DNA of 64,000 nucleotides from Thermodesulfobacteriota bacterium (GTDB taxonomy: Bacteria > Desulfobacterota > Binatia > Bin18): the NCBI GenBank assembly GCA_964291405.2, contig OZ219926.1, forward strand, positions 2,816,001 to 2,880,000, written 5' to 3'. A program made the translations under genes and the position numbers. This document shows, one piece after another, positions 20,507 through 38,814 of the stretch. Every line of letters starts with the position of its first letter. The first letter of the stretch is position 1. The notes under the pieces are model-generated. The model saw nothing but the letters and a program-made list of their open reading frames with translations, was not told the DNA's origin and searched no databases.

Positions 20507-22158
20507 ATGCCAATCAGATCACTCACACTGTTGTTTCCGGTAATCGTCGGCTGTCTCATCTCCTCTTGCTCCCTGACACCAAATCGAATGCCCCCGATTC
20601 TCGAAGCAGCGATGGAGTTACCCGACGAGTTTGCCGAAAGTGAAGTTGCCGGCTCATACGAGCCGCTGGAGTGGTGGAAGGCGTTCGCCGACCCGGTTCT
20701 CGACCAGGTCATCGAAGCGGTGCTGGCCTCGAACTTCGACCTCGCCGAGGCGGTCGCCCGGGTCGACCAGGCCAGGGCGCGGGAGCGTATCGTCAAAGCC
20801 CCGGCGTTTCCGCTGCTTCAGCCTTCGGTGGAGATCACCGATATGGAGACATCTACCAATGCGGGTATTGCCGCGTACCTGGACGAATTGGGGGTGGGTT
20901 CCGACGTATACCGCGATTTTGGCTTCGAGATTCCCGATCGGATCGGCCTGACGACCTACGACCTGGGTCTTGACATCTCCTACGAACTTGACTTCTGGGG
21001 CCGCAATCGCAACGACGCGCATGCCGCCGGTGCCGAGCGGCGGGCTTCGGAGTCGGACTACCTGACAGCCCGCATGGGGTGCTGGCCGAAACCGTGCGCA
21101 CCTACCTGGAGATCGTCGACCTGCGCCACCAACGGCGGCTGGCCGGCGAAGTCGTGGAAATCTTTCAGCAGCGGGAGTCCTTGGCCGAGTCTCGTTACGA
21201 CCGCGGGCTGACCGGTGCACGCGCCCTCTATACGGCGCGGCAGAACCTGAGCAACGCGCAAACCAGGGTGCCGCAAATCGAGGCGCTGTTGGCGGACGCG
21301 AAAGGCCGACTTTGGGTGCTCCTGGGGGGGTACCATGCGGACCTCGCGGGCATATTGCCCGATTCCCTGACGCCCTCCGCCGCGCTCGACCCGGTTCCGG
21401 CAGGCATTCCGGCCGACCTCCTGGCACAACGGCCTGACGTCAACGCGGCAAGGCAGCGGATGGAAGCAGCCCGCTACACCGTTGGCGCACGCCGCGCGGA
21501 TTTGCTGCCGAGCTTATCCCTGTACGGTTCCATCGGGCTGCAAAGTGCCGAGGCGGGCGAGTGGTTCGACCCGGATCAATGGTTCCGGAACCTGAGCTTC
21601 AACTTGCTTGGCCCCGCATTTCAAGGTTCACGGCTGCGCAGCAACGTTGATCTCGCCGAGGCCCGGTGGAATGAAGCTGCCGCCGCCTACGGGCGTTCCG
21701 TGGTCAGCGCGGTCAACGAAGTCGAGGCCGCCCTGGCGGGGCTGGAGGCCAACCGCCGCCGGCATTCCCTGCTGGCTTCCAGGACGCAAGAGGCTCAGGC
21801 CGAAACGGTGTTGCAGGAACGGCGTTATGCCTCCGGAGTAGGTAGCTATGAGGATTTCCTGACGGCGACGCACACCCTCCTGGGCGCGCAATCCGCGCTG
21901 GCAGCGGCGCAGCGTGACCTGGGGCACGCGCGTCTTGTCCTGCATCGCGCGCTGGGGGGCGCGTGGACTGCAAAGAGTAAACGTGTCCTCCAATCACACA
22001 AAAAAGCGGGACACGTTTACTCTTTCAACGAAGGGGAAGCCATCCAGCAGAGTAACCTAGCTCCTGACACCAAGGAGGGAACGTGTCCTTCCTCGACCGG
22101 CAGATGCGGGACACGGTCCCTCTTTCAACCGCGTCGGCTTGTGAGCGCCCCGGAGTAA
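20507..22158 (+). CDS. Efflux outer-membrane lipoprotein (NodT/TolC family), frameshifted at about 21076-21080
   Basis: Lipobox ISSC, WWKAF.DP.LD, SYELDFWG; then in another frame LAETVRTY, PADLLAQRPDV, LHRALGGAW; the G-run ATGGGGTG lacks one base. Confidence 0.82.
21972..22025. repeat. 54-bp palindromic element, family A, copy 2
   Basis: Perfect 17-bp arms AAAGAGTAAACGTGTCC / GGACACGTTTACTCTTT, 20-nt spacer. Confidence 0.85.
22072..22125. repeat. 54-bp palindromic element, family A, copy 3
   Basis: AAGGAGGGAACGTGTCC-N20-GGACACGGTCCCTCTTT, exactly 100 bp after copy 2. Confidence 0.8.
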
Positions 22159-22164
22159 ATCACC

Positions 22165-23379
22165 ATGTCCCGCATTTTCAGCTTTGTCATTGCCGGCGCC
22201 ATCCTCAGTGTTTCAGTGGCGTTGGCGGCTTTTCTCATTTCACTGGCACCCGAACCGACCCGCACTGAACCCCCGCCCCAGATCCCGTTCGCGCAGACGG
22301 AACTGGTTTCGGCCGGCACCGGTCCCATACCGGTCTACGGGTCCGGTACCGTGAGGCCGAGCGCTGAGATCGGTATCGCACCGCAGGTGGGGGGGAAAAT
22401 CGACTGGGTGGACCCGGGATTCCAGAGCGGGGGACGGGTAACGGCGGGCCAGACGCTCATCCGCATAGAAGAGGCGGACTTTCTGTACCGGGTGCGGGAA
22501 GCCGAGGCCAATCTCGCCGCCCGGCGGGTAGCCCTCCTTGAGGAGGAGGAAAAAGCCGAAATTGCCCGAGTCCAATACGAACTGTATATCGCCGGCCAGG
22601 GAGATGCGGATGCGACGTCAGCCGCGAATCCCCTCACGCTGAGAGAGCCTCAATTGAACGCGGCGCGTGCCGCAGTGAGCCGCGACGAGGCCCGGCTCGC
22701 TGAAGCCAATCTTGCCCTGTCCAGGACCCGGGTCACGGCACCGTTCGACGGCTTCGTACGCGAAGAATCCGTGGACGTGGGACAAGTCGTCGCCGTCGGC
22801 CAGACCGTCGGCCTGCTTTTCGCTGCGGAGGCCGTGGAGGTGGTCGTGCCCTTGTCCGATTCCGACGCGGCACTGATCGCGGGACTTTGGGATCTCAGGG
22901 CGGGTGACGGGGTGCGACGGGTGGCGGCCCGTGTGGTCGCCCAGTACGGGGACGGGAGCTACGCCTGGGAGGGGTATGTGGATCGGGGCGAGCTATCCCT
23001 GGACAAACAAACGCGAACGATAGACGTGATCGTGCGTGTACCCGAACCGTTTACAACTGGTGTCCGGACGGACGGCTCCGATGTTGTCGGTGAGCGCCCT
23101 CCCTTGCTGGTAGGCAAGTTCGTAGATGTGGAAATCCACGGCCATGAATTGGATGGATACTACCGGGTGCCGCGAGCGGCATTACAATCTGGCAACGAGG
23201 TTTGGATTGTGAATGATGGCGGCGTGGTGAGTATCGTTCCGGTACAGGTCCTACAACGGACCAACGACGAGGTATATGTGACCGGCACCCTTGAAAGCGG
23301 CCAGACCGTCATCACCGGTGGAATCCGGTTTGCCACAGAAGGCATGCGCGTCCTGACGGCAGCTGACCCGACACCATGA
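22165..23379 (+). CDS. RND efflux periplasmic adaptor (membrane fusion protein)
   Basis: N-terminal TM, GTVRP..EI.IAPQVGGKI, TRVTAPFDG, TRTIDV, VPRAAL. Confidence 0.9.
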   Translation: MSRIFSFVIAGAILSVSVALAAFLISLAPEPTRTEPPPQIPFAQTELVSAGTGPIPVYGSGTVRPSAEIGIAPQVGGKIDWVDPGFQSGGRVTAGQTLIRIEEADFLYRVREAEANLAARRVALLEEEEKAEIARVQYELYIAGQGDADATSAANPLTLREPQLNAARAAVSRDEARLAEANLALSRTRVTAPFDGFVREESVDVGQVVAVGQTVGLLFAAEAVEVVVPLSDSDAALIAGLWDLRAGDGVRRVAARVVAQYGDGSYAWEGYVDRGELSLDKQTRTIDVIVRVPEPFTTGVRTDGSDVVGERPPLLVGKFVDVEIHGHELDGYYRVPRAALQSGNEVWIVNDGGVVSIVPVQVLQRTNDEVYVTGTLESGQTVITGGIRFATEGMRVLTAADPTP

Positions 23380-26300
23380 GTCCTGACAACGGCCCTCACA
23401 CGGAACCATCCGGCCCGATCGCCTACATGGCTGGCAACAGTGTCGCTGCCAATCTGTTGATGTGGGCCATCATCGCCGCCGGGCTGGTGTCACTGACCGG
23501 TCTGGAGCGCGAAGCGTGGCCCACGGTCCCATTCTACCATGTCGAAGTTTCAATGCCCTATCCCGGCGCCACCCCGGAAGAGGTGGAGGAGTCGATCATC
23601 GCCAAGATCGAGGACCAGGTCAGCGGGTTGGATGATGTCAAGGCGGTCAAGTCCGTCGCGGCCCCAGGTATGGCATCCGTGCGTATTCAAATGGATTCCC
23701 GTACGGACATGGATCGAGCGTTGGACGATATCGAGTCTGCCGTCAATCGTATAGAGTCTTTCCCGGCTGGTGCCGACCGTCCCCAATTCAGGGAGATGAC
23801 CAACCGCCAGAGCATGATGCGGCTCATCGTGTATGGCGATGTGCCCGAGCGCTCGCTCAAGGAATTGGCGTACCAGATCGAGGACGAACTCACGACACTT
23901 CCCTCCGTGTCCCAGGTCGAGGTCAGTGGTGTTCGGAAATACGAGATCTCTATCGAGGTACCGCTGCATCGGCTGAGAGCCCTTGGACTGACACTCCCCG
24001 GCATCGCCACCACGATTCATCGCAGTTCCCTGGACCTTTCTGCCGGCAGTATCGATACCAGGGAATCCCAGGTGCGGGTCCGGACCCTCGGCCAGAACTA
24101 TGACCAACAGGATTTCGAAGAGATCGTCCTTCTCAGCGGCAGTGACGGCACGGTATTGCGCCTCGGCGACATCGCCGAGGTCCGCGACGGTTTTCAGGAA
24201 ACCGACCTGATTGTCCGGCACCAGAACCATCCCGCCGTATTCGTCGAAGTCTACCGGGCCGATGATGAGCACGTGATGGATGTCGCCACGACCGTCCGAG
24301 AGCACCTGACGAACGAGGTGGTCCCGGCTCTGCCGGACGGTGTGGGCATCACCATCTGGAATGACGAATCCCAGGCCTATGAGGAACGCGCCGCTCTTCT
24401 CCTCAAGAACGGAGTTCTGGGCCTGTTGCTGGTGTTGATCGCCCTGAGCTTGTTTCTCGAAATTCGGCTCGCCCTGTGGGTCGCCGCCGGCATCGCCATT
24501 TCGGGTATCGGCACCCTGGCCGCCATGCTGGTACTCGACTATGCAATCAACACCATCAGCCTGTTTTCGTTTGTCCTCGCCATCGGTATTGTCGTCGACG
24601 ACGCGATCGTCGTAGCCGAGCACATTCAAGTACGAACGCAAGCGGGGAACACCCGGAGTCGCGGCGGCGATCCGCGGCGTCACGTCGGATCAAAGTGCCG
24701 TTGACATTCGCGGTGCTCACTTCGGTGGTGGCGTTCGTCCCACTACTATTTATCCCTGGTGGCGTCGGTAAGGTATGGGAGGCACTGCCGGTCATCATGA
24801 TCGCCATGCTGCTGGTTTCTCTGGTCGAATCGCTGTTCGTGTTGCCCAACCACCTATCCCACCTTCCCGGCCCGGACTGGGTGCCGACCAGCGCCTTCGA
24901 TCGGTTCTTCGCACGGATTCAGAGTTGTGTAAACGAATTGCTGAACAAGTTCGTACAAGGCCCCTTGGGTCGGGCGCTACAGTTTGCGACGGACCAGCCT
25001 GCGGTGACGATGGCGGGGGCAGTGGGAATGCTCATATTAAGTATCTCTCTGTTACCGGCGGGTATCGTCCCTACCACATTGGCCGCTGACGTCGAGGGGG
25101 ATTTCGCAACGGTCACTCTGGACATGCCCGATGGGACGACCGCGCCGAGGACATACGAGGTGGCGAAGGAACTGGAGGCCGCGGGCCACCGGGTCATCGA
25201 ACGACTGTCGCGCGGCCGACCCGAGGATGCACCTCCGTTGCTGACCGGCGTCACGGTGACCGTCGGACAGGGGCCGAGACTTGAGGGTGGGGGACTGAAT
25301 CCCGAGCCCACCCTCAATCCGCGGGCCAATATCGCCACCATCGAATTCAAACTCCTGGGCGCACAGCAGAGACAGCTCTCCACCAGAGAGGTCGTGCAGG
25401 CATGGCGCGAGGAGGTGGGAGTGCTGCCCTACGTGCGCGGTATCACCTTCAGCGGCGAGCTCATCGACCTGGGCAATCCGGTCGAGGCCGTGCTGTCGCA
25501 TCCTGACCCGGAGCGCCTCGCCCAGATCGCAGACTCCGTGGTCGATGGTCTCCGTGGAGTGAGAGGCATCTACGACATCCGTTCGGATCACACCCCAGGC
25601 ATCCCGGAAATACAGCTCGAACTGCGGCCGGAAGCGCGGACCCTGGGTCTCACGCTTGAAGAGTTGGCCGGGCAGACGCGCGCCGCATTTTTTGGAGCAG
25701 AGGCCGTCCGGGTGCAACGCGGCCGGGAAGAGGTCCGGGTCTACGTGCGTCTGCCCGCCGATGAGCGGAATGCCATCACCGATGTCGAAGGATATCTGCT
25801 CCGTACGCCGAGCGGGGCCGAGGTCCCGGTTACCAGTGTGGCCGTGCTGAACCCAGGCGTATCGCCGCCGGCCGTTCGACGGAGGGATGGTCAGCGCGTC
25901 GTCACGGTCACGGCGGACGTGGACCCCACGGTGATTTCCGGCGACGAAGCCAACAGCATTCTGACCAATTCGATCCTCGCGGACTTGACCGCCGTGTACC
26001 CGGACCTGACATACACGTTTGGAGGTGAACAACAAGAGCAACTCGAGTCCGTAGGTGCGCTGTATCGCGGGTTTGCGATTGCCTTACTCATGATTTTCGT
26101 GCTGCTCGCCATCCCCCTACGCTCCTATACCAAACCGTTCATCATCATGGCCGTTCTCCCGTTCGGGTTCATCGGCGTGATCCTGGGTCACTGGGTCCTG
26201 GGAGTAGCCCTGAGCGCAGTATCCTTTATGGGTATCTTCGGCCTCAGCGGCGTGGCTGTGAACGATTCCCTCGTCATGATCGATTTCATCGATCAGAAAC

Positions 26301-26614
26301 TCAGAGAAGGGGTCCCGATGCGCACGGCAATCATAGAGGGTGCTAAAGGGCGCTTTCGTCCGATCATGCTCACTTCCGTGACGACTTTCCTGGGCTTCAC
26401 CCCTCTCATTCTGGAACGCTCCATTCAGGCCCAGTTCCTGATCCCCTTTGCCGCGTCGCTCGGTTTCGGCATTCTCTTCACCACGGCCATCCTTATGATG
26501 GTCGTTCCGGCGTTATACGCGATCCAATTCCGGCTGATTTCTTCGCGTGGTAATTCTGGTGTCCCCGACACCTCGGTACACGCCCGATCCGCGAGCGAGA
26601 GCCTGCACGCGTAA
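23376..26614 (+). CDS. RND efflux permease (AcrB/AcrD/AcrF-like), with two apparent +1 indels at about 24629 and 24682
   Basis: YPGATPEEVEE, GIVVDDAIVVAEHI (TM4), GVAVNDSLVMID, RFRPIMLTSVTT; bridging segment YERKRGTPGVAAAIRGV lies in the third frame. Confidence 0.88.
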
Positions 26615-26759
26615 GCAAGCGTACGAACTCTGGACTGTAGACGATGTTCCTACTGAAGGACATTTTTCTACAGTTTTGCTATACAAGCGATCAGGCGCTG
26701 TGTATCTTCCATCAGAGACTCCTTAAAAAGTGCGCACAATGGAGGTGACACCCTTGGAA

Positions 26760-28754
26760 ATGAGGACTCTGAGCTTCGCTGAAGACTTTTGTTTGCTGAT
26801 GTTTGACGACGCCTCCGGAGGCCTCTGCCCGCTCCGGGGGCGAACGATGGACTTCGGTTTGGCGGCCGCCGTCCTGTTGGAGTTGGCTCAGCACAATCGT
26901 ATCGAGACCAAGCCCAACAGTCTCTCTGTGGTCGATGCATCGCCGATTGGCGATCCCGTGGCGGACCCGGTGCTGGCCCAGGTCGCGTCGAGCGGACGGT
27001 CCGGCTCTCCGGAATACTGGGTACAGCGCATAGGGCTTCAGTCGGGCTCGCAGATAGCCGAGGCCAGCTTGGATCGGCTCGTAGAGCGCGGAATCCTGGA
27101 GCGGATCACGGGTGGCCTCTTCTTCCTCACCTCTGAGGTGGCACGTTCGCGACGCTACCCCAGGGCAACAGGCCGCGGCGCGGACGAAGTCCGCGTCCGG
27201 GTGATGCGGACACTCTTCAGCGGCGAGGCTCCGGACCCTTGGGATGCTGATCTGATAGGGCTCGCCGAGGCCTGCGGTGTCTTCAGGCTTATCCTGAGCG
27301 CGGCCGAGTTCGACAACGTGAGAGGTCGAGTCGAGAAGATGCGGCCGCCTAACCCGCTCTGCCACGCCGCTCAGCAGGTAGCCGCTGACGATTTGGCCAC
27401 GCAAGAGCCTTCGCGCCGAGAATTCAAGCCGATACCGGAGGTGCCGGGACTGCCGATCCTCGGCAATGCCCTGGGCATGAGCGGCGACCTGCAGGCATAC
27501 CTCGACGGGCTGTACAAACAGTACGGGCCGATTTTCAGTCTTCGAGCGCCTGGCCTCCGGGTAGTAGTCATGGGAGGCAAGGAGGCGATAGCGTTCGCGA
27601 TGAGGTATTCGCAGACGCACCTGCGTAGCAACCGGTCGTTCGCCGTCTTCTGCGAGGCGATGGAGACCGACCGGTCGATCATCTCCATGGACGGTCACGA
27701 TCATATCAAACTCCGGCGCCTCGCCCACGCCGGCTACGCCAGGATGACGGTCACGGACAACTTGGCGACGATCATCGACGTCGCCCGTCGCGTCGTTGCG
27801 TCCTGGCCCGTCGCCCAACCCCTTTCGGTCTATCCGGCAATGCAGGAGATTGCGATTCCGCAACTCGGAACTGTTGCAACCGGGCTCGCGCCGACTGAAT
27901 TCGTCGACGATCTCAGGTACTGGTTCGACTCGCTCGTCATCGCCATGCGTCAGGATCGGCCGAAGTTCATGCGTGACTACCGGTTGCGAAAGGTGCGTCC
28001 CAGAATCAAGGAACTCTTTCGCCAAGCCGTGGAACTACACGATCCGCAGCGTCGCGAGGGGTGTCCCCGCGATCTGATCGATGAGTTCCTGGAGTTGCAC
28101 AGGCGCGATCCGCAGTTCCTCCCGGAGACCGATCTCATCTCCTCGGTGGTCGCCCCATACATCCAGGCCCTGGACCCCATCGCCGGCACCCTGGGGTTCG
28201 CTTTGCTTCGCTTGCTGGCAGAACCACGGTACGCCGAAATACTCCAAAACGAGGCGGATGAAGCGTTTGCCTCGGGGCTGGCCGATGCCGACGACATTCA
28301 CGGACTGGATATGACATACGCGTTCCTTGCCGAGGTCATGCGCTGCCGCACCATCACGCCGATCATCCTGCGCACGGCGTGTAACTCCTTCGAGTTCGAG
28401 GGTCACTGGGTACCCGCCGGTACGCCGCTGTGGCTGGCTCCGGGGGTGGTCCACAACGACCCGGACTACTACCCGAACCCCGACCGATTCGAACCCGAGC
28501 GGCACTTGCCGCCACGGCTCGAATCCCAGCAGAAGGGCGCTTTCGTTCCCTTTGGAATCGGTCCGCATTCCTGCCTCGGAGATTCATTTTCCAGAGATCA
28601 GATGGCGGTGACGCTGGCCACGCTTCTGCACTGTGCCGAATTCGGCCGCTATCCGGTTGGAGACAGTCGCGTGAGAATCACCTCATACCCGTCGCTCCGT
28701 CCGCACGGCAAGTGCCGCATTCAGATAAAGCGTCACCGGCTCGCCGCTCAGTAA
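26760..28754 (+). CDS. GPP34(GOLPH3/Vps74)-like domain fused to cytochrome P450, paralog 1
   Basis: N-terminal about 210 aa LSFAEDFCLL.FDD..G, GLAAAVLLELA...RI, GDPVAD, LDRLVERGIL, RYP; C-terminal P450 with PGLPILG, EVMR, FEPER, FGIGPHSCLG. Confidence 0.82.
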   Translation: MRTLSFAEDFCLLMFDDASGGLCPLRGRTMDFGLAAAVLLELAQHNRIETKPNSLSVVDASPIGDPVADPVLAQVASSGRSGSPEYWVQRIGLQSGSQIAEASLDRLVERGILERITGGLFFLTSEVARSRRYPRATGRGADEVRVRVMRTLFSGEAPDPWDADLIGLAEACGVFRLILSAAEFDNVRGRVEKMRPPNPLCHAAQQVAADDLATQEPSRREFKPIPEVPGLPILGNALGMSGDLQAYLDGLYKQYGPIFSLRAPGLRVVVMGGKEAIAFAMRYSQTHLRSNRSFAVFCEAMETDRSIISMDGHDHIKLRRLAHAGYARMTVTDNLATIIDVARRVVASWPVAQPLSVYPAMQEIAIPQLGTVATGLAPTEFVDDLRYWFDSLVIAMRQDRPKFMRDYRLRKVRPRIKELFRQAVELHDPQRREGCPRDLIDEFLELHRRDPQFLPETDLISSVVAPYIQALDPIAGTLGFALLRLLAEPRYAEILQNEADEAFASGLADADDIHGLDMTYAFLAEVMRCRTITPIILRTACNSFEFEGHWVPAGTPLWLAPGVVHNDPDYYPNPDRFEPERHLPPRLESQQKGAFVPFGIGPHSCLGDSFSRDQMAVTLATLLHCAEFGRYPVGDSRVRITSYPSLRPHGKCRIQIKRHRLAAQ

Positions 28755-28908
28755 AGTCCCCATCGACGCGAGTTTCTCTTGCCCGGGAACGAGTGTCAAC
28801 GGTGGCAGGATTAGGAGTTGAACTACTCCGGCTTTCGGCCGAGCACAGAGTACATTGGCGTGAATATCCCCAACCGGTCGGATTCTGCAGACACTACCAA
28901 GATAAGAC

Positions 28909-28938
28909 TTGTCCCTCCCTAAACCGGAGAGCTATAAT
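28909..28938 (+). promoter_or_regulatory. Putative sigma70 promoter for the P450-2/sterol operon
   Basis: TTGTCC-N18-TATAAT, about 20 nt upstream of ATG 28958. Confidence 0.45.
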
Positions 28939-28957
28939 ACAGCAAGGGCGAAGACCT

Positions 28958-30982
28958 ATGACTGTTACTCAAGAGGGTGCGACAACCCAACCCCTAACTT
29001 TGACCCAAGAACTCATCCTGATGCTCCTCAACGAGGAGACCGGCTACTTCCACCAAGTGCCCGGCTGGGATCTGAACTGCGCCGTGATCGGTGCCGTGCT
29101 CGCGGAGCTTTCCCTCAGACGTCGCATTGACACGGATGAGGAATCCCTGTTCCTTGTGGACGGGACGGAAACGGGCAACCCCGTTCTGGACCCCATCCTG
29201 AAGGAAATTGCAGCTGAACCGGTTCAACGGAACACCCAGTACTGGATCGAACGGCTCGCTCCCCGTGCGGAGTCGATCATTGATGCGGTTCTGGATCGCT
29301 TGGTTGAGCTAAAGGTCCTGGAACACCACGAAGGCGGGTTCTATACGCTGGCTCGCGCTGCCTGGCAGACGGAAGTGTTCGACAGCTCCTCAGAAGGCAC
29401 GGCGATTCAATTCGTCAAGACGCGCATCAGCAATGCAATTTTCAACAATGATATCCCTGACCCGAGAGATATCATCATTATCTGTCTCATCAACACGTGC
29501 GACGTCTTTCGCTTCATGTTTCAACTTGATGACGAGGCAGAGGAGCGCATCGAGTTCATCTGCAAGATGGATTTGATCGGCCGGTCCATCGCTGCTGCGG
29601 TCTCCCACAACCTTGCCGGCCCGCTGCTTCGACATTCCGCCCTGACTAAGAAGATTCCGGCTGTCTCCCTGAGCAAGTTGCTGTTCAATCCCCATATTCG
29701 CAGCGGCAATATTCCCGCGCTCTTTGCGGATCTTACGCAAGAGTACGGCCCGGTATTTGAAATCCGTCCTCCGTTTGCCGAGCCCATGATTTTCCTGGCC
29801 GGGCCACGGACAAACCGCTGGGTACATCGGCACGGGCGGATGTACCTGAGGGCCAAGGACTATTTTGCCGACTTCGAGAAAGTCTACGGTGCGTCTGGCG
29901 TACTCCCTTCCCTGGATGGCGCCGATCATTTCCGGCTTCGCAAGGCGATGGGGCCGGCCTATTCACGCGGGAGACTGGGAGGTCAGTTGGACCAGGTCTA
30001 CCATTATGCTCGTAAATATATGGCGGATTGGACGGTTGGAGACTCCCTCTCTGCAACGCGCCTGTGCCGACGCATGATTAACGCGCAAATCTCACCTCTC
30101 CACCTCAGCGTTGACTCGCAAGATATCATCGACGATCTAGTCGTCTACAAGGAACGAGCGCTCAACACCCACATCCTAAAAGCCCTGCCCAAATTCATGC
30201 TGAAAACCCCAGGGATGAGCCGCCGGGCAAAAATTATCGACACCTTGCTGGAACGGGTCCAGGGGGTCCACACGCCGGCCCAGCGGTCCGGATGTCCGCG
30301 GGACCTTGCGGATGACTGGTTAAGCCTGCACGCGAGCGATCCGCAATTGATGCCGGAGTCGAATCTGCGTTTCGCTCTTTCAGTCGCGCTGGTTGCCAGC
30401 GTCTACCTTGGCGATGCGTTCAGCTTCGCTTTGTACGCCATGGCGTCACAACCGGCGCTCTACTCCAAAATCCAAAGTGAGGCCGATGCCCTGTTCGATA
30501 ACGGTGATCCGGAGGGCGAGGACTTCACCCCAGCCGCAATCGACGTCACGCACCGCTTCCTCATAGAGTGCCTACGCATGTATCCGATTGTCCCGATGTC
30601 TGTACGAACCGTGATGAATTCGTGCGTGGTCGAGGGCTACGAACTACCGGTGGGGTCACAGCTCTACATTGCCCAGACAGCCGCGCATTATATGGACGAC
30701 GTCTTCCCTGACCCCTTCTCTTTCGATATCGACCGCTATCTGCCTCCGCGTAATGAGCACCTCAGTTCCGGGTACGCACCCTACGGGCTGGGTACGCACA
30801 CCTGTCTGGGCTCCCGATGGATGGACCTGCAACTGGCCGTCAATGTGCTTATGGTTGCGCACTACTTTACGCTCAAGGTCCCCACGAACTACAAGTTCCG
30901 GTTCAGCCCGTTGCCGTCAATGAAACCGAGCAAGAAGCTGAAATTCCACATCACCGAACAGAGGCGCGACTTGCCCGTCTGA
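28958..30982 (+). CDS. GPP34-like domain fused to cytochrome P450, paralog 2
   Basis: LTLTQELILMLLNEETG, AVIGAVLAELSLRRRI, TGNPVLD, LDRLVELKVL, PDPRD; P450 with ECLR, FDIDR, YGLGTHTCLG. Confidence 0.82.
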   Translation: MTVTQEGATTQPLTLTQELILMLLNEETGYFHQVPGWDLNCAVIGAVLAELSLRRRIDTDEESLFLVDGTETGNPVLDPILKEIAAEPVQRNTQYWIERLAPRAESIIDAVLDRLVELKVLEHHEGGFYTLARAAWQTEVFDSSSEGTAIQFVKTRISNAIFNNDIPDPRDIIIICLINTCDVFRFMFQLDDEAEERIEFICKMDLIGRSIAAAVSHNLAGPLLRHSALTKKIPAVSLSKLLFNPHIRSGNIPALFADLTQEYGPVFEIRPPFAEPMIFLAGPRTNRWVHRHGRMYLRAKDYFADFEKVYGASGVLPSLDGADHFRLRKAMGPAYSRGRLGGQLDQVYHYARKYMADWTVGDSLSATRLCRRMINAQISPLHLSVDSQDIIDDLVVYKERALNTHILKALPKFMLKTPGMSRRAKIIDTLLERVQGVHTPAQRSGCPRDLADDWLSLHASDPQLMPESNLRFALSVALVASVYLGDAFSFALYAMASQPALYSKIQSEADALFDNGDPEGEDFTPAAIDVTHRFLIECLRMYPIVPMSVRTVMNSCVVEGYELPVGSQLYIAQTAAHYMDDVFPDPFSFDIDRYLPPRNEHLSSGYAPYGLGTHTCLGSRWMDLQLAVNVLMVAHYFTLKVPTNYKFRFSPLPSMKPSKKLKFHITEQRRDLPV

Positions 30983-31004: not shown

Positions 31005-32096
31005 ATGACCCTACCCGTTGTCCGATTCGCGGCGATTGAGGGTCTCGTGCTCGAGGCGGCGGCCATGCTGTTGGTGTTTGTCGGCGTTTTGTTTCTGGGT
31101 TCTATACTCCTGCCCGGCCGTCGGGTTGCAGGGCCGGATCTCGAGGGAAAATCACGCACCTACAAGCTCAACGGCCTCGCCTTGTTCCTGATTGTCGTGA
31201 TGGTGGCATGCCTCGCCCAAGTCTCCGGCTGGTTCTCACTTTCCGTGCTGCATACCCACTTTGCCGCTTTGTTCGTGGTGGCAAACGGATTCGCATTTGC
31301 TCTTTCCGGCTGGCTGTATTGCCGTGGAGCCTGGGCCGGAGAGGCATCACCAGGAGTCTGGCGAGGATTTTTCTTTGGCTCGGAGCTCAGTCCGACCTGG
31401 CTCGGGGTGGACTTGAAGCTTTTCAGCTACCGCCCTTCCCTCATCGCCCTGGCACTGTTCAACGCATCGTTTGCCGTCGTGCAGTACGAAACCTACGGCG
31501 GGCTGACCCTGGCCATGGCGCTCTATCAGATCTTCACCTTCTTGTACGTGCTCAACTACTTCCAGTTCGAATACGGGATGACCCACACCTGGGACATGGT
31601 CAGTGAGCGCTTCGGGTGGATGTTGATTTGGGGCGACTATGTGCTGGTGCCGTTCTTCTATAGCCTCGCGGGCTGGTGGCTGGTTCACGCAACGGAACCG
31701 CTGTCTCCCATGGCCGCCGGCGCGCTCGTCTTGTTGTTCGCCTTTGGCTTCTGGCTCTTTCGCGGCGCCAACGAGCAAAAGCACCGCTTCAAGCATGACC
31801 CTGCGGTCACGATTTGGGGACAACCCGCCCGGTCCCTGGACGGGCGCCTGCTGGTCTCCGGATTTTGGGGTATTGGACGACATCTCAACTATACCGGCGA
31901 GGTCTGCGTCTACCTCGCGTTCACCCTGACCACTGGACTCGCCTCCTGGGTGCCATACCTGTTACCCGCGTGGCTGGCGGGTCTGTTGTGGCATCGATCG
32001 AGACGTGATGAGCGCCGCTGTCGCGCCAAGTATGGCGAGCTGTGGGAACGCTACACGCAGCAGGTGCGTTATTCGATGCTGCCGTTTGTTTATTGA
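31005..32096 (+). CDS. Sterol reductase, ERG24/ERG4/DHCR7 family (probably C14 reductase)
   Basis: YKLNG, FFFGSELSP, DLKLF..RP, ERFGWMLIWGD, LLVSGFWG..RH.NY.GE, RDERRCRAKYG..W..Y. Confidence 0.92.
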   Translation: MTLPVVRFAAIEGLVLEAAAMLLVFVGVLFLGSILLPGRRVAGPDLEGKSRTYKLNGLALFLIVVMVACLAQVSGWFSLSVLHTHFAALFVVANGFAFALSGWLYCRGAWAGEASPGVWRGFFFGSELSPTWLGVDLKLFSYRPSLIALALFNASFAVVQYETYGGLTLAMALYQIFTFLYVLNYFQFEYGMTHTWDMVSERFGWMLIWGDYVLVPFFYSLAGWWLVHATEPLSPMAAGALVLLFAFGFWLFRGANEQKHRFKHDPAVTIWGQPARSLDGRLLVSGFWGIGRHLNYTGEVCVYLAFTLTTGLASWVPYLLPAWLAGLLWHRSRRDERRCRAKYGELWERYTQQVRYSMLPFVY

Positions 32097-32104
32097 AGGC
32101 AGGG

Positions 32105-33514
32105 ATGGCACAACAGTCTCACAATCTGGCAACCCGGCGTTCGGTGCAGCTCTCGCCAGCGGCGGCAAAAGCCGTTCCCGAGCTCGCGGGTGGGTGGCCG
32201 TTAATTGGTCATCTGCTGGATTTTCAAAAGGATCCGGTCTCGATGTTGAGCCGCGGTTGGCGCGAGCGGGGCGAACTCGTCCGGTTCCGGCTCGGTCCCC
32301 GCGAGTTTGTTCTCTTCACCGGACCCGAAGCCCACGACGTGTACTTCAGCGCGCCCGAGGATCAGCTGAACGCCAAAGCCGTCTATCAGTTCACGGTCCC
32401 CATCTTCGGCCGCGGCGTGGCGTACGACGCCGCCCCCGAGCTCATGGACGAGCAACTCGGATTCCTGTTTCCGGCGCTTCGCGAAGCCGCGATGCGCCGG
32501 TTTGCCCGCGTCATGTTCGAGGAGACCAGCCAGTTCGCCGACACGCTCGGCGAGGACGGGGAAGTCGATCTGCCGCTCGCGCTGAACGAGCTGACCGTCA
32601 AGATCGCCAGTCGTTGCCTCATTGGAGAGGAAGTTCGGGAGCAGGTGGACGCGGGTTTTGCCGAGGCGTATCACGATCTGCAAAAAGGCATCAACACCCT
32701 GGGATTTTTTCTCCCCAGACTTCCCACCCCAGCGCATCGAAGCCGCGACCGGGCCCGGCGACAAGTGGCCGCGCTCTTTAGCCGGATCATGACGGCCCGC
32801 CGGCTTTCCGGGGCCCGGCCCGACGATTTCATGCAGACACTCATGCACGCCCGTTACAGGGATGGCCGCGTCTTGGACGACGACGAGATTACCGGAATCC
32901 TGTTGACGGTGTTGTTCGCGGGCCAGCACACCAGCGCGGTGCTCGCAACCTGGACCGGTCTGGAGCTCCTGAGGACGCCATCATACCTGACGCGGGTAAG
33001 AGACGAGATACAAGACGTCTACCGCGAGGCAGGAGCCATGAGCCTGGCGAGTCTCAAACGACAAGAGGCGCTGGAACACGCCGTACGTGAGTGCGAGCGG
33101 CTGCACCCGCCATTGATAATGCTGATCCGCAAGGTCCTCAAACCCGTGCGTTACCGAGACTATATCGTGCCGGCCGACACCCTGGCCATGGTGTCGCCGG
33201 CGGTCTCTCACCGGTTGCCCCACGTGTTTGCCAACCCGGAGCGGTTTGCTCCGGACCGCTTTGCTGCCCCCGCTTGCGAGGACAAACAACACCAGTACGC
33301 CTTGATCGGTTTTGGCGGCGGCAAACACCGCTGCATGGGGAAACATTTTGCGTACCTGCAGCTGAAAGCGATCTGGACCGTGCTGCTCGATCGCTTCGAT
33401 TTTCATCTCGACACCGCGTTTCCCGCCCCGAATTACGGGAGCTGGGTGACGGGCCCCGAGACACCCTGCCGGCTCCGCTACCGCCGCCGCTCGCAAGGGA
33501 GCCTTGTCCGATGA
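32105..33514 (+). CDS. cyp51: Sterol 14-alpha-demethylase (CYP51)
   Basis: CYP51 signatures VYQFTVPIFGRGVAYD and FAGQHTS; ECERLHPP; FGGGKHRCMG. Confidence 0.9.
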   Translation: MAQQSHNLATRRSVQLSPAAAKAVPELAGGWPLIGHLLDFQKDPVSMLSRGWRERGELVRFRLGPREFVLFTGPEAHDVYFSAPEDQLNAKAVYQFTVPIFGRGVAYDAAPELMDEQLGFLFPALREAAMRRFARVMFEETSQFADTLGEDGEVDLPLALNELTVKIASRCLIGEEVREQVDAGFAEAYHDLQKGINTLGFFLPRLPTPAHRSRDRARRQVAALFSRIMTARRLSGARPDDFMQTLMHARYRDGRVLDDDEITGILLTVLFAGQHTSAVLATWTGLELLRTPSYLTRVRDEIQDVYREAGAMSLASLKRQEALEHAVRECERLHPPLIMLIRKVLKPVRYRDYIVPADTLAMVSPAVSHRLPHVFANPERFAPDRFAAPACEDKQHQYALIGFGGGKHRCMGKHFAYLQLKAIWTVLLDRFDFHLDTAFPAPNYGSWVTGPETPCRLRYRRRSQGSLVR

Positions 33515-36500
33515 GCGGCACCACGCTTCGGCCCTACGACGTCGCCATCGTCGGTGCGGGTCCGGTCGGTAGCGTGTGCGCGCTCGCTCACGCGCGCAAA
33601 GGTGCCCGGGTGGCTCTGCTCGAAGCAAATCCCAAAGCGTCCAGACGACTGGCGGGCGAATGGCTGCATCCGCCTGCTGTACAGATGTTACGTGATGTTG
33701 GAGTAGAGCTCGATACGCAGCCCCGCAGCGCCGCGGGTAAAGGATTTGTGGTGTTCCCGGAAGACGGCTCAGAGCCGATAGTGCTGCCTTATCCGGACGG
33801 AGTCCAGGGTTTGGTATGCGAGCATGCAGCACTCGTCTCGCGGCTGCGTGAAGCTATCGAAAACGAATCGGGTGTCGACTGTATGCTCCACGCGCGGGTC
33901 CGTGCGGTCGAAGACGGGCGGGTCACTTTTGCCCGGAACGGCGCCGATGAATCCGTGACCGCGGCACGGATTGTCGGTGCCGACGGCCGGGCCTCAATCG
34001 TGCGTCAGTCGCTGGGTTTATCGACACGCCCGATGACCTGCTCGCGGATGGTAGGGGTCATACTAAGGGGGGTGAGTTTACCGCTAGAGGGGTATGGGCA
34101 TGTGCTGTGTGGTGGACCGGGTCCAGTGCTCATATACCGTCTGGGAGAGCATTACGTCCGGGTCATCGTCGATGTCCCAATGGCCGGCTGGACCCCCGGG
34201 GACCGGATTGGCTTCCTGTCGGATGCGTATGCCGGTGTGTTGCCGGAAACAATGAGACCTGCGTTTATCGAAGCGCTGCGGGGGGGACAATTCAGCGTCG
34301 CGGTCAATAATTTGAGCCTGCGCGTCACATACGGGAGTCCACATCGAGTGCTTATTGGCGATGCGGCCGGGCACTACCATCCCCTGACGGCGGTGGGAAT
34401 GACCCTCGGTTTCGGCGATGCGCTTACGCTGGCCGAGGGCGAGAACTTTCACGACTTCACCGCTAAGCGTTTGCAGGCGACCCGCGCTCCGGAGTTCCTC
34501 GCCATGGGGTTCTACGAGGTCTTTGCCGATCATCGGGCCGAGGTGGTGGCGATCAGACACGCGGTCTACCGGCGTTGGCGGGCAAAATCCACGGTTCGCG
34601 ACCGGACCATGCGTTTACTCGCCTGTGAAGACACCTCGGCGGCCCATCTGGGTCGCGAGTTTGGCGTGACGATGGCCCGGGCGGTTGCCGGGGAGATGCC
34701 GCGATCCTCCGACCAGCTCGCTTGGCGCCGAGCCCGCGACATCGTTTATGCGACCGCTGTGCGCCTCTGGTGGCTCCTGCGTGGCCTTCGGCAGTTACAC
34801 AAGGCGAGAAGCGCGGGCGGAGAAAAAGACGGGCGATTTCGGGACACCTTGGCCCTCGCGTTTCCGGTCTCTATGCCATCGAGAGTGAGTGACCCCCAGC
34901 CCAGCCGCCCGAGGGAGGTTGCGTCACCCGAGGCCGGTCCGGCCTTGCGGCGGGCGAGCGCGCGCTTGTTACATCTCCAGGATGAGGAGGGCGGCTGGGA
35001 AGGTGAGATGGTTTGGTGTCCCATGCTGACCGCGCAATATGTGCTGTTGCACCACATTCTGGAGCGGCCGCTCGAGCCCGGCCGGCGTCGGCGTGTGCTG
35101 CGCTCCTTCGAACGGACCCGTCTCGAAGGGGGCTTATGGGGTTTACACGAGCACGCACCACCCTCCCTGTTTGTCACCACCCTGGTGTACGTCGCGACGA
35201 GATTACTCGGTATCGAGCGGGATGATCCGTTCATCGAGCCGGCCCGGCGATTCCTGCAAGCAGAGGGGGTTCTCGGTATCCCGAGCTGGGGAAAGTTCTG
35301 GCTGGCGCTCCTCAACCTCTACGACTGGCGCGGGGTAAACGCCATCCTACCGGAGCTGTGGAGCTTACCGCGCTGGATCGCGTTACATCCCTCGAACTGG
35401 TACTGCCATACTCGGCTCATCTACATGGCGATGGCGGCGATTTATCCGCATCGGTTCCAGGCCCCCGTCCCGCCCTCGATCGCGTCGCTGCGAGAGGAGC
35501 TATTCCCCCAGGGCTTTGCCAACGTCGATTTTTCCGCCGGCCGCAATCGCTTGCGAGATGCCGACCTCTACGCGCGACCCAGTGTGTGGCTCCGAGCCGG
35601 ATATGAGTGTGCGCGGTTAGTCGAACGGTTCCACGCCAAACGTCTGCGCACCCGATGTATGGAAGCGATCATCCGGCACATCAAATGGGAGTTGCAAACC
35701 ACCAACCATACGAGCATCTCTCCGGTCAGCGGTCTTCTCAACATCCTGGCCTTGTGGCTGCGCGATCCTCACGACACCGATGCCGCCCAGGCGCTCGCGA
35801 AGCTGGATGACTGGATCTGGGAAGACGAGGAGGGTGGAGCGCGCGTTACCGGAGCGAGAAGTACCTCGTGGGATACCGGATTCTCTCTGCAAGCGCTGGC
35901 GACAGTGCCCGAGCTTGACGGGGTTCAAAGCGCCCTCCAACGCGGCGCCGACTTCCTGCGCCGGCAACAAATCGGCACCAGTTTCGCAGGATTCCGCGAG
36001 GCATATCGGATCGACCCCAAAGGCGGCTGGTGTTTTGCCGGGGGATGGCATGGCTGGCCGGTGACGGACTGTACCGCGGAAGCGGTGCTCGGGCTTATCG
36101 CCGCCGACCGCGAGGCCACGAGCCCGGCAGCGCTCGGCGAAGCGATTCGGTTCATGTTGCGTGGTCAGAACCGCGATGGCGGTTTTGGCAGCTATGAGGC
36201 ACAGCGCTCCGTGGTTGGCCTCGAGTGGCTGAATCCGGCCGAGATGTTTGGCGACTCGATGACCGAGCATTCCTATGTCGAGTGCACCGCGTCCTGCCTC
36301 GCGGCGCTCGCCGCCTGTCAGGAGCACTTCCCGCAAATCACGAATGGGGCGGTGAGGCGCGCCATCGCACGGGCTGACACTTGGCTGCGCCGGACCCAGG
36401 CGAGCGATGGGTCGTGGCGCGGCGTGTGGGGCGTGCAGTTCATCTATGGCACTTTCTTCGGGGTCAGGGGGCTGCTTGCTGCCGGGGCTCGTCCCGGCGA

Positions 36501-36912
36501 CCCGGCGCTACGTCTGGCCTGCCGGTGGCTGCTGGACCGCCAGCATGAAGACGGGGGATGGGGTGAGCATCACAGCGGTTGCCTGACCGGCCGCTATGTC
36601 GCACATGAGGAAAGTCAGGTCATCCAAACCGCGTGGGCAATGATCGCGCTCCTCGAGGCAGACGATGCGGACTGGACCGCGATTGCGCGGGGTGCCCGGT
36701 TCTTGCTCAGCACCCAGGAGGCGGATGGGACATGGCCCAAGCAAGACATGGCCGGGGTCTTTTTTCGTACGGCGCTACTGGACTATGTCCTATATCGACA
36801 GTATTTTCCCCTGCACGCGCTCAGTCTCTACGAGCAGCGACGCCAAGCCCGGCTGGATCCGACGTCCCCCGTTCCACTTACCGCCGACGCGACTGGCTGG
36901 AGATGTTCTTAA
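33511..36912 (+). CDS. Squalene epoxidase (monooxygenase)-oxidosqualene cyclase fusion
   Basis: N-terminal GAGPVG, RLAGEWLHP, GADG, IGDAAGHYHPLTAVGMT; C-terminal QW repeats, SWGKFWL, WYCHTR, catalytic VTDCTAE, YVECT; ATGA overlap with cyp51. Confidence 0.88.
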   Translation: MSGTTLRPYDVAIVGAGPVGSVCALAHARKGARVALLEANPKASRRLAGEWLHPPAVQMLRDVGVELDTQPRSAAGKGFVVFPEDGSEPIVLPYPDGVQGLVCEHAALVSRLREAIENESGVDCMLHARVRAVEDGRVTFARNGADESVTAARIVGADGRASIVRQSLGLSTRPMTCSRMVGVILRGVSLPLEGYGHVLCGGPGPVLIYRLGEHYVRVIVDVPMAGWTPGDRIGFLSDAYAGVLPETMRPAFIEALRGGQFSVAVNNLSLRVTYGSPHRVLIGDAAGHYHPLTAVGMTLGFGDALTLAEGENFHDFTAKRLQATRAPEFLAMGFYEVFADHRAEVVAIRHAVYRRWRAKSTVRDRTMRLLACEDTSAAHLGREFGVTMARAVAGEMPRSSDQLAWRRARDIVYATAVRLWWLLRGLRQLHKARSAGGEKDGRFRDTLALAFPVSMPSRVSDPQPSRPREVASPEAGPALRRASARLLHLQDEEGGWEGEMVWCPMLTAQYVLLHHILERPLEPGRRRRVLRSFERTRLEGGLWGLHEHAPPSLFVTTLVYVATRLLGIERDDPFIEPARRFLQAEGVLGIPSWGKFWLALLNLYDWRGVNAILPELWSLPRWIALHPSNWYCHTRLIYMAMAAIYPHRFQAPVPPSIASLREELFPQGFANVDFSAGRNRLRDADLYARPSVWLRAGYECARLVERFHAKRLRTRCMEAIIRHIKWELQTTNHTSISPVSGLLNILALWLRDPHDTDAAQALAKLDDWIWEDEEGGARVTGARSTSWDTGFSLQALATVPELDGVQSALQRGADFLRRQQIGTSFAGFREAYRIDPKGGWCFAGGWHGWPVTDCTAEAVLGLIAADREATSPAALGEAIRFMLRGQNRDGGFGSYEAQRSVVGLEWLNPAEMFGDSMTEHSYVECTASCLAALAACQEHFPQITNGAVRRAIARADTWLRRTQASDGSWRGVWGVQFIYGTFFGVRGLLAAGARPGDPALRLACRWLLDRQHEDGGWGEHHSGCLTGRYVAHEESQVIQTAWAMIALLEADDADWTAIARGARFLLSTQEADGTWPKQDMAGVFFRTALLDYVLYRQYFPLHALSLYEQRRQARLDPTSPVPLTADATGWRCS

Positions 36913-37782: not shown

Positions 37783-38814
37783 TCAGTCTCCCGAGCGCCG
37801 GGGTTTACGGGCCAGGAAGAAATACATCGGTGTAAAAATACCGGACTCGCCACCGTCGACCAAGGCGTCCGCCGCCCTGTTTAACAGCGTGCTGACCGAG
37901 GCGGCGCCCTCCGGAAACACCCGCAACTTCTCGCCAACCCTCAACACCAGATTGGTCAAGGCGCGGCCAACGGGTGTGCGCGGAATACTCTTGAGACTGA
38001 GGTCGCGACCCTGCAAGGCGCGGTACCAGGGCGTTTCCGGATGCGATTCGGGGGCAAGGTCGTGGGATTCCAGGAGTTCGAATCCGGCCCCGCGCAATGC
38101 GGTGCATATCTCCGACGAGAAGGCGATATCCGGTAGTGCATCCCCCGCCATGATATCTTCCTTGATCCGCAGGTGCTCTGCGTTCCTCGGATCGAATTTC
38201 TCCGTGAGACACCAGTCGTAGCCCGCGAAACAAGCCCCCGGACGCAGGACGCGGAAGATCTCCCGGAACGCGGCAGTCTTGTCCGGTGCGTGGGGCATGG
38301 ACTCGATGGCAATGGCGGCATCGTAGTGGTCGTCACCTTCGGGAACGTGCATGTAGTCGCCGTGGATGAAACGGCACAACGACTGGACATCTCGGGTGTG
38401 CACTTTCGCGCGCTCGATCTGATAGGCGTTAGTGTTGATCCCGACGAAGCTGGCCCCGGAATAGCGGGCCAGATTGCCCATGGGCCCGCCTACCCCGCAC
38501 CCCGCATCGAGCACTTGCATCTCCGGTCCCAGGGACAGCCGATCGGCGAGAAAACGCTGGTGCCTGAGCAGCGACGCCTTGAAGCTCTCGCTCCGGCGCC
38601 GGGGAGCAAAGTGCCAGGACTGACCCCAGCCGAACTCGTAGAAATCGGTCACCAAGTCGTAGTAGTGATTGACGAGCAACTGATACCGCTCTTTTCTCCG
38701 CTCCGAGCCAGCATCGTGGAGCCCGGTGTATTGATCGACCACGGATTTCACTTCATCCGGGGCGAGATTCGCGAGGGAACGAGAGCTCGATCGTTTGGCG
38801 GGCGTACGGGTCAT
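37783..38814 (-). CDS. smt: Sterol 24-C-methyltransferase (SMT/ERG6-like)
   Basis: NHYYDLVTDFYEFGWGQSWHFAP (region I), LDAGCGVGGP (SAM), IESMPHAP, YDWC, GGESGIFTPMY. Confidence 0.93.
   Translation of the reverse strand: MTRTPAKRSSSRSLANLAPDEVKSVVDQYTGLHDAGSERRKERYQLLVNHYYDLVTDFYEFGWGQSWHFAPRRRSESFKASLLRHQRFLADRLSLGPEMQVLDAGCGVGGPMGNLARYSGASFVGINTNAYQIERAKVHTRDVQSLCRFIHGDYMHVPEGDDHYDAAIAIESMPHAPDKTAAFREIFRVLRPGACFAGYDWCLTEKFDPRNAEHLRIKEDIMAGDALPDIAFSSEICTALRGAGFELLESHDLAPESHPETPWYRALQGRDLSLKSIPRTPVGRALTNLVLRVGEKLRVFPEGAASVSTLLNRAADALVDGGESGIFTPMYFFLARKPRRSGD

Follow-up and report, generated by a model that had tools for sequence, protein, structure and literature searches.

In this work we have analysed two adjacent genes, here called A and B, in a stretch of 64,000 nucleotides from a Thermodesulfobacteriota bacterium (lineage Desulfobacterota; Binatia; Bin18; GenBank assembly GCA_964291405.2, contig OZ219926.1, positions 2,816,001 to 2,880,000 of the forward strand); the whole of this stretch is referred to as the window, and coordinates are those of the window unless a genome or locus is named. 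Each gene codes for an N-terminal GPP34 (GOLPH3/Vps74-like) domain followed by a cytochrome P450. Our reading, to which we give a probability of roughly 0.6, is that A and B, as cytoplasmic haem-thiolate P450s, belong to the class published as GPP34_L and most likely oxidise sterols, and that B is the core of a transferred sterol-tailoring cassette. The cassette would comprise the GPP34–P450, a KshA-like Rieske oxygenase, one or two sterol methyltransferases (SMTs), an FAD amine-oxidase-family enzyme (AmOx) and either an RND pump or an MMPL transporter with a sterol-sensing domain (SSD). In the window genome it would be joined to a full de novo pathway, made of ERG24, CYP51, squalene epoxidase (SE) with oxidosqualene cyclase (OSC), SMT and SdmAB, and A would be a rarer paralogue placed between the transporter and B.

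The two genes and their domains are as follows:

26730..28754, + strand: gene A, GPP34–P450 fusion, 674 aa from a GTG start at 26730, Pfam matches to both domains
26778..27359, + strand: GPP34 (GOLPH3/Vps74-like) domain of A, aa 17-210, Pfam PF05719, E 6.4e-34
27438..28631, + strand: cytochrome P450 domain of A, aa 237-634, Pfam PF00067, E 3.7e-48
28958..30982, + strand: gene B, GPP34–P450 fusion, 674 aa from an ATG start at 28958, Pfam matches to both domains
29000..29602, + strand: GPP34 domain of B, aa 15-215, Pfam PF05719, E 5.7e-29, with a predicted β-hairpin at aa 121-131
29696..30895, + strand: P450 domain of B, aa 247-646, Pfam PF00067, E 3.6e-32

The PF05719 match that a first-pass annotation of this DNA had led us to expect was found in both proteins far above the curated cut-off of 29.1 bits (118.2 bits in A, 102 in B), covering positions 2-190 and 1-198, respectively, of the 201 in the profile. 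For A, in-frame ATGs at 26739 and 26760 are alternative starts, and the second gives 664 aa, the length of its nearest relatives; fused relatives of A and B are about 655-690 aa long. The two proteins are 29% identical over 666 aligned positions, that is, end to end (E 5e-90), in agreement with their annotation as two paralogues of about 665-675 aa with an N-terminal module and a full P450. The motifs quoted there were also all found: GAVLAELSLRRRI, LDRLVELKVL and PDPRD in the N-domain of B, LDRLVERGIL and PDPWD in that of A, the ExxR motif as ECLR in B and EVMR in A, and the heme loop as YGLGTHTCLG (C616) in B and FGIGPHSCLG (C615) in A. A hydropathy scan found no segment of transmembrane grade and no signal-peptide-like N-terminus in either protein, and the maxima over 19 residues (1.46 in A, 1.78 in B) both fall within the GPP34 core.

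Since the window assembly has indel-type frame breaks elsewhere, the fusion was checked independently. Short-read contigs from two public runs span the region from 26446 and 26461, respectively, to 29023 with 1 and 0 differing letters, and both Pfam domains are present in 120 of the 120 relatives of B listed (76-95% identical) and in 92 of 99 relatives of A. Contigs and domain content of the relatives agree that the fusions of A and B are not indel artefacts, as had been argued from the fact that the architecture occurs twice.

A and B stand in a cluster of sterol genes. From 20507 to 36912 every gene is on the + strand, in the order OEP, HlyD, RND, A, B, ERG4/ERG24, CYP51-like and SE plus OSC, and with the likely starts the gaps are 204 nt (A–B), 22 nt (B–ERG24), 8 nt (ERG24–CYP51) and -4 nt (CYP51–SE/OSC), which supports the placement of the fusions at the head of a sterol operon. 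The likely ATG of SE/OSC, at 33511, overlaps the CYP51 stop (ATGA, 4 nt) and gives 1133 aa of a frame of 1273 aa. The order B–ERG24–CYP51–SE/OSC is also found in a congener (L006/L107). The genes around A and B are:

20507..26614, + strand: OEP–HlyD–RND efflux/transport genes upstream of A (Pfam)
31005..32096, + strand: sterol C-14 reductase family, ERG4/ERG24 (Pfam PF01222, E 1e-69)
32042..33514, + strand: CYP51-like P450, likely ATG at 32105 (Pfam p450, E 4.4e-56)
33091..36912, + strand: SE and OSC in one frame (Pfam SE, SQHop_cyclase_N and SQHop_cyclase_C; VTDCTAE motif)
37783..38814, - strand: SMT with Sterol_MT_C (Pfam)
38819..39907, - strand: SdmA-like Rieske oxygenase (Pfam; NCBIfam SdmA E 6e-123, under the equivalog cut-off)
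39904..41100, - strand: SdmB-like reductase (Pfam; NCBIfam SdmB E 4e-92, under the equivalog cut-off)
41240..42454, + strand: AmOx (Pfam)
42643..43722, - strand: Rieske oxygenase with a KshA_C domain (Pfam)
44563..45984: second CYP51-like P450, 34% identical to the cluster CYP51, 0.8 kb past the KshA-like gene
46037..47215: thiolase-C-like gene, after the second CYP51-like P450

The SdmA-like and SdmB-like genes form a C-4 demethylation pair (38819..41100).

The evidence that B belongs to a cassette comes from its distribution. We scanned one genome per species with a closer alignment of eight sequences and found 557 relatives of B; linkage counts are given for the best 80 of these 557, which are 72-90% identical to B over their full length, and taxon labels are those carried by the genome records. 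These best 80 loci carry at least nine phylum- or class-level labels: Chloroflexota/Dehalococcoidia (51), Latescibacterota (8), the Gemmatimonadota group (7), Nitrospirales (4), Binatia (2), Opitutales/Opitutia (2), and Rhodothermaceae, Alphaproteobacteria and Arenicellales (1 each), with 3 unlabelled. The top match, at 90%, is a Candidatus Binatia metagenome-assembled genome (MAG) of the same genus as the window genome. Because many of the carriers are complete chromosomes, mis-binning is no explanation for this spread, whereas transfer can explain it. Local tblastn searches with the window proteins (at least 50% query coverage) within 10 kb on either side of B gave the following neighbours:

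KshA-like Rieske oxygenase, at least 50% identical: 65 of 80 loci
SMT-like, at least 40% identical: 60 of 80 loci
MMPL with sterol-sensing domain, at least 64% identical to the protein of locus L016: 46 of 80 loci
AmOx, at least 70% identical: 45 of 80 loci
RND, at least 70% identical: 20 of 80 loci
ERG24: 5 of 80 loci
SdmA: 5 of 80 loci
OSC: 4 of 80 loci
CYP51: 4 of 80 loci

At least one of the listed neighbours is present at 78 of the 80 loci, and the two others are a 2.9-kb contig and a locus (L078) with a LolA-like gene. Pfam assigned Sterol_MT_C to three methyltransferases among the sampled neighbours (two at L016, one at L036), Rieske plus KshA_C to the oxygenases, and Sterol-sensing/Patched domains to the MMPL proteins. 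A whole-genome search with the window OSC found no OSC orthologue in ten carrier genomes: six gave no match, three of the five Dehalococcoidia gave matches of 29-30%, two of which have the DIDD(T/S)A motif, which we take to be of the squalene-hopene-cyclase (SHC) type, and one, an alphaproteobacterium, gave only a 58-aa remnant. Seven of the same ten genomes have Sterol_MT_C genes, 13 in all, and more than half of these (7) are no farther than about 2 kb from B. Our results show that B is linked mostly to sterol-tailoring genes in genomes in which no OSC orthologue was detected, and not to de novo clusters. The linkage to OSC and sterol clusters that had been anticipated is borne out for sterol-tailoring neighbours and not for the cyclase, which is within 10 kb at only 4 of 80. 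The conserved neighbours in other phyla strongly suggest a sterol or lipid role, in line with the lipid-related role that the first-pass annotation had envisaged for bacterial GPP34 proteins.

At L124 (G008:C1:2938000-2953999, 6625..7951), in an alphaproteobacterial MAG, a 58-aa OSC remnant, 59% identical to the window OSC, is convergent with a canonical SMT that is 76% identical to the window SMT; from these alignments the cyclase looks decayed and the methyltransferase kept. In four Chloroflexota loci (L032, L034, L035, L046) two tandem ERG4/ERG24-family genes, 30-31% identical to that of the window, lie about 4-9 kb upstream of B, beside AmOx and B, and no OSC match was found in the B flanks of these four loci.

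The same neighbours would also fit a cassette for breakdown, in which host sterols are imported by the MMPL-SSD or RND transporters and degraded for carbon by a CYP125-type side-chain P450 and the KshA-like Rieske oxygenase. The frequency of the KshA_C-type Rieske (65 of 80 loci) and of the SSD-type MMPL (46 of 80) speaks for it, as does the thiolase-C-like gene at 46037..47215, and any sterol in the ten carriers without an OSC orthologue would be exogenous. SMTs, however, build and do not degrade, and they are among the commonest partners (60 of 80); at the OSC-bearing loci the cassette is joined to the biosynthetic operon; and Pfam on selected open reading frames of a few sampled flanks found no KstD, Hsa, Mce4 or β-oxidation set. 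We consider a catabolic cassette unlikely. We propose instead that the sterol-tailoring cassette acts on sterols made de novo where an OSC is present (the window, Nitrospirales, Opitutales) and presumably on exogenous, host-derived sterols elsewhere.

What does the GPP34 domain contribute? An AlphaFold2 model of the N-domain of B (pLDDT 83) gave GOLPH3/Vps74 as all of the top eight Foldseek matches in the PDB (TMq 0.54-0.68, probability 1.00), with the next match at E 0.087, and a profile of the N-domain matched GOLPH3 at E 4e-18. As modelled, the N-domains are true GPP34/GOLPH3-fold domains, and the comparison with Vps74 that had been proposed as a check came out as predicted, with best TM-scores of 0.67-0.68 (E 8e-9). 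In GOLPH3, phosphatidylinositol 4-phosphate (PI4P) is bound by W81, R90, R171 and R174, and mutation of R90 abolishes PI4P-dependent localisation (PMC13408441, as given in its text). We mapped these residues by HMMER profile alignment, with high confidence at R90 and R174 and moderate confidence at W81 and R171:

GOLPH3 W81: P35 in B, Arg in A; no Trp in 59 fused proteins
GOLPH3 R90: I44 in B, Ala in A; 0 of 59 basic (Ala 47, Val 6, Ile 3)
GOLPH3 R171: E105 in B, Ser in A; no Arg in 59, mostly acidic
GOLPH3 R174: I108 in B, Ala in A; Arg in 31 of 59

The R90 position is likewise non-basic in 28 of 28 N-domain or stand-alone sequences with a residue there (one row was gapped), and short GPP34 relatives also have Ala, Val or Ile. 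By this alignment the fused GPP34 domains lack the GOLPH3 PI4P pocket. A second feature of GOLPH3 seems to be kept. Its β-hairpin (residues 190-201), with an FLLF tip, inserts into the bilayer (PMC13408441, text), and the models predict a β-hairpin at aa 121-131 of B whose second strand is hydrophobic (consensus GG-[LF]-[FVWY]-F-L; family majority L-F-F-L; LFFL in A, FYTL in B). To judge from the alignment, this hydrophobic hairpin matches the place of the GOLPH3 hairpin and is conserved.

These results bear on the only published reading of GPP34–P450 proteins. The fusion itself is already in print, and the statement of the first-pass annotation that no description of it was known does not hold. 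In PMC11706023 (Microbiome 2025) it is named GPP34_L: the GPP34 domain is coupled to P450 in 656 of 663 long forms, the long form is reported to be exclusive to sponge symbionts of many phyla, and GPP34 is proposed to be a secreted effector, the P450-fused form included, that binds host PI4P and blocks phagosome maturation. Homology to the PI4P-binding GOLPH3/Vps74, the reported confinement to sponge symbionts with expression of both the long and the short form in A. aerophoba metatranscriptomes (same source), and a strong conservation across phyla that would fit a host-directed selective pressure are in favour of this model. Against it, no fused protein has a basic residue as R90 equivalent, the residue being Ala, Val or Ile in 56 of the 59, W81 is never Trp and R171 is mostly acidic, the 28 N-domain or stand-alone sequences are also non-basic at R90, and the N-terminus is not signal-peptide-like. 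A haem P450 requires cofactor loading in the cytoplasm and an NAD(P)H redox chain, which does not suit a secreted protein. Moreover, B is translationally packed with ERG24–CYP51–SE/OSC and has SMT, KshA-like and SSD-transporter genes as linked neighbours. The searched passages of PMC11706023 report no signal peptides and no conservation of the binding site, and in its text the terms 'sterol', 'signal peptide' and 'binding site' have 0 occurrences each. Since the pocket is missing, the cofactor needs are cytoplasmic and the operon context is that of sterol genes, an effector function is very unlikely for the fused form, the least likely of the explanations that we have weighed.

Microsomal eukaryotic sterol P450s (CYP51, CYP61/CYP710) have an N-terminal transmembrane anchor, and they are also a precedent for sterol side-chain desaturation. 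A and B have no transmembrane helix, and the GPP34 domain could be an analogous membrane-placing module. The first-pass annotation had suggested that the domain may replace the anchor by docking on anionic or sterol-rich membranes or by presenting substrate. Docking on anionic lipids by the GOLPH3 mechanism is not supported, given the loss of the PI4P residues (R90 basic in 0 of 59) and the acidic N-domains (58 of 59), but the suggestion of an anchor substitute may survive in a modified, hairpin-based form. In our proposal the GPP34 domain would bring a soluble P450 to membrane sterol or to a membrane partner, with access to the membrane through the conserved hydrophobic β-hairpin and not through a PI4P pocket, and the P450 would carry out ring or side-chain hydroxylation or desaturation in cooperation with the methyltransferase. 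The model of full-length B (pLDDT 88.5, pTM 0.82) suggests a fixed arrangement of the two domains.

By sequence the P450 domain is remote from every solved structure, the best match being at E 1.5e-18, and for A and B NCBIfam yielded nothing beyond generic P450 names scored below threshold. In a large protein database the next unfused P450s are about 26% identical to A, and the best of them carries the label 'sterol 14-demethylase' (26% identity). Given that 92 of 99 relatives of A are two-domain proteins and that the next unfused P450s are at about 26%, the P450 domains would form, by sequence, a clade of their own in which fusion is nearly universal. In P450 nomenclature, a member of the CYP51 family has at least about 40% identity. 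A and B were considered as CYP51 enzymes and rejected, their P450 domains being 23-27% identical to the window CYP51 in partial alignments of 111-230 aa.

Several observations weigh against the sterol-tailoring reading. The 80 loci are related as a whole block by descent or transfer, so that the adjacencies cannot be counted as separate events. Pfam on selected open reading frames in the B modules of the three loci sampled detected neither a ferredoxin nor a reductase. The I-helix acid–alcohol pair of P450s, with its conserved Thr, serves O2 activation; in the column of this Thr, as assigned from the MAFFT alignment only, Thr is present in 38 of 59 proteins, Tyr in B and in 12 of 59, and Pro in A and in 3 of 59. 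The replacement by Tyr in B and Pro in A hints that classical hydroxylation is not assured and that oxygen activation may be non-classical. The predicted P450 fold is closest to P450 BM3 and CYP184A1 (TMt 0.80-0.83), so that the nearest solved folds are fatty-acid hydroxylases (BM3; CYP184A1 with oleate) and not sterol enzymes, and CYP51 is only one among many distant PDB matches (E 1e-13 or weaker). Within the genus, no sterol gene could be recognised up to about 9 kb away from 7 of the 14 fused paralogues examined; these seven are 33-39% identical, with a sulfotransferase, a Mo-hydroxylase and a TonB receptor among the genes beside them. Finally, 58 of 59 N-domains carry a net negative charge (median -14), which counters electrostatic docking on anionic bilayers.

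Part of these observations would be accommodated if the substrate were, in place of a sterol, a fatty acyl chain, a hopanoid or a different terpenoid, for example; the sterol linkage would then reflect a shared membrane-lipid island. Besides the closest folds, those of fatty-acid P450s, the SHC-type cyclase in 3 of 5 Dehalococcoidia carriers (DIDD(T/S)A in 2 of 3), a fatty-acid-desaturase-family gene between A and B in one congener (G011) and the GPP34–P450 subfamilies outside sterol contexts point in this direction. Nevertheless, three sterol-specific signatures (Sterol_MT_C, KshA_C and the sterol-sensing domain) recur beside B in phyla that otherwise share little, and the B gene of Binatia is tightly placed within the OSC operon, which makes a non-sterol substrate quite improbable. 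B (3 loci), a D-type paralogue (3) and A (1) are all located among sterol genes in the genus, and the sterol link is strong for the B, D and A types and not for the whole GPP34–P450 class.

The charge of the N-domain could have another meaning. GOLPH3 has a negatively charged groove that recognises the basic tails of Golgi enzymes (PMC13408441, text), and GPP34 might in the same manner tether the P450 to the basic tail of a membrane partner, such as a transporter or an ERG24-type reductase, in a sterol-passing metabolon. The acidic N-domains (58 of 59) next to net basic P450 domains (median +8 in the 59 fused proteins) fit such a protein adaptor, transporters are constant neighbours of B, and P450 genes lie within five genes of stand-alone GPP34 genes in 8 of 13 and 17 of 19 genomes of two actinobacterial groups (PMC11706023, where the flanks were analysed for the short form only). 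The stand-alone GPP34 gene of the window genome, however, adjoins STAS and thiolase genes and neither a P450 nor a transporter gene. An adaptor function is unlikely, although it ranks first among the alternatives, just ahead of catabolism. We retain sterol oxidation by a P450 with a proposed hairpin-based membrane access as the preferred reading.

How does this system compare with those already described? Like A and B, GPP34_L proteins have the same GPP34 (PF05719) N-terminal to P450 (PF00067) and occur in many phyla; the long form described here differs in that it sits among sterol genes and apparently lacks the PI4P pocket, and the tandem pair of two subfamilies (A and B) is not described in the main text of PMC11706023. 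With GOLPH3/Vps74 (PDB 3KN1, 9QPQ, 2ZIH) the N-domains share the fold and, as predicted, a β-hairpin with hydrophobic residues, whereas the bacterial domain is net acidic, does not keep the PI4P residues and is fused to an enzyme. ERG24–CYP51–LSS steroid gene clusters with signs of horizontal gene transfer are described in sponge symbionts including Binatia (PMC9531527), and functional symbiont SMTs and SMT clusters in PMC10070321; the core operon, the phyla including Binatia, the gene transfer and the SMT and SdmAB neighbours are as in the window. In the texts of these two papers GPP34 has 0 mentions each, 'P450' occurs not at all in PMC10070321 and once, in a cited title, in PMC9531527, and a tailoring cassette in genomes without a detected OSC orthologue is not described. 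The CYP51–ferredoxin fusion of Methylococcus capsulatus (PMC7947880, as described there) is likewise a bacterial sterol-pathway P450 fused to an accessory domain, but its partner is a C-terminal redox domain and that of A and B an N-terminal, non-redox, GOLPH3-like domain. No published report of a linkage between GPP34–P450 and sterol genes was found in main texts, and supplements may list such neighbours; the close linkage to sterol-modifying genes appears to be unreported before.

A wider proposal is that a mobile sterol-tailoring cassette has spread, at 72-90% identity, across at least nine phyla or classes of animal-associated (sponge) communities, mostly in genomes unable to produce sterols. 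In these symbionts, sterols taken up from the host would be desaturated or hydroxylated and given alkyl groups on the side chain, with GPP34 as a PI4P-independent membrane- or sterol-access module and not an effector. We put this forward only tentatively, and it may well prove wrong in its full extent. If it is true, symbionts with the cassette contribute to the unusual sterols of sponges and to sterane biomarkers, and the many without a detected OSC orthologue yet with SMTs and oxygenases could modify the sterols of their hosts. The origin of the side-chain-alkylated sponge sterols, and with it the reading of biomarkers of the 24-isopropylcholestane type, is at issue here. Where the only published reading of GPP34–P450 is that of a host PI4P effector, the gene context here points to sterol chemistry, and bacterial GPP34 domains gain a lipid-related role that can be tested.

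Some features of the genes around A and B deserve mention. AmOx has LkcE as its nearest solved structure (E 2e-20), with a weaker match to a 'putative aminooxidase' (2b9w); AmOx (74-95% identity) and the KshA-like Rieske (up to 91%) are conserved across phyla like B and travel with it. The single frame of SE and OSC was also found in five other loci (L006, L022, L040, L057, L107) of Binatia, Opitutales and Nitrospirales, with 1217-1315 aa. In the A–B gap there is one candidate control element:

28909..28938, + strand: sigma-70-like promoter match, TTGTCC-18-TATAAT, 10/12, 20 nt before the start of B

It is the best of six such matches in 17.5 kb, where 4.6 are expected by chance, and as a promoter it is only suggestive. 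Upstream of A, the OEP (20507..22158) and RND (23376..26614) genes are each split into two overlapping frames in the window and are intact in L006 and L007. Short-read contigs at the depth of the organism have one base fewer at 24628, one fewer at 24682 and one extra after 21075, and the breaks in both genes are probably assembly indels and not pseudogenes.

A-type proteins are rare, with only three protein clusters that reach 84% identity to A or more, the next being at 71-75% and lower. Orthologues of A, 89-90% identical, are present in 2 of 18 other genomes of the genus (G011 and G028). In G011 A lies again between the RND pump and B, with the desaturase-family gene mentioned above, and in G028 a B-type match is about 3 kb from A. 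A scan of metagenome contigs with the A-type alignment found no orthologue and only generic P450s (22-28% identity), and five Latescibacterota genomes yielded only paralogues of 28-39%. Since the closest congener has different genes at the position of A, and read depth agrees, A appears to have been inserted recently at its place between the transporter and B. The depth of the A segment is about 34 in run X1 and about 4.6 in run X2; summed over the RND and B segments it is 100-1100 in X1 and about 13-60 in X2, the higher values being due to the many organisms in those samples with near-identical copies. Three congeners have the D-type (42-43% identity to B) between AmOx and the KshA-like gene, and the window lacks it.

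Further paralogues were observed in the genus. A third one in the window genome (G000:C3:3017493-3019145; L005 9182..11149) has an intact P450 in a 472-aa frame, 34% identical to A and B, and a GPP34 match of only 56 aa in another frame, of 167 aa. Either the fusion is broken or the assembly has a frameshift here; around it are an MFS transporter, an FMN-dependent dehydrogenase, luciferase-like monooxygenases and a piece of a TonB receptor. One GPP34–P450 paralogue in four species of the genus (36-37% identity to A) is open over 673 codons but for a single in-frame TAG:

G011:C1:873989-875974: TAG-bearing paralogue
G014:C3:4398833-4400818: TAG-bearing paralogue
G025:C5:1322411-1324396: TAG-bearing paralogue
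G028:C1:1177631-1179616: TAG-bearing paralogue

At another locus (L106, 7861..8994) a sulfotransferase gene is directly upstream of a fused paralogue, and the database proteins P0301 and P0345 are further fused, one with sulfotransferase, GPP34 and P450 and the other with GPP34, MFS and P450 Pfam matches. The stand-alone GPP34 of the window genome (217 aa; G000:C3:1240794-1241393; L128 7753..8406; Pfam E 3e-47) is kept in most of the genus. Two STAS-domain genes and a thiolase gene share its row on the minus strand, and by local tblastn the nearest P450 match is about 84 kb away or farther.

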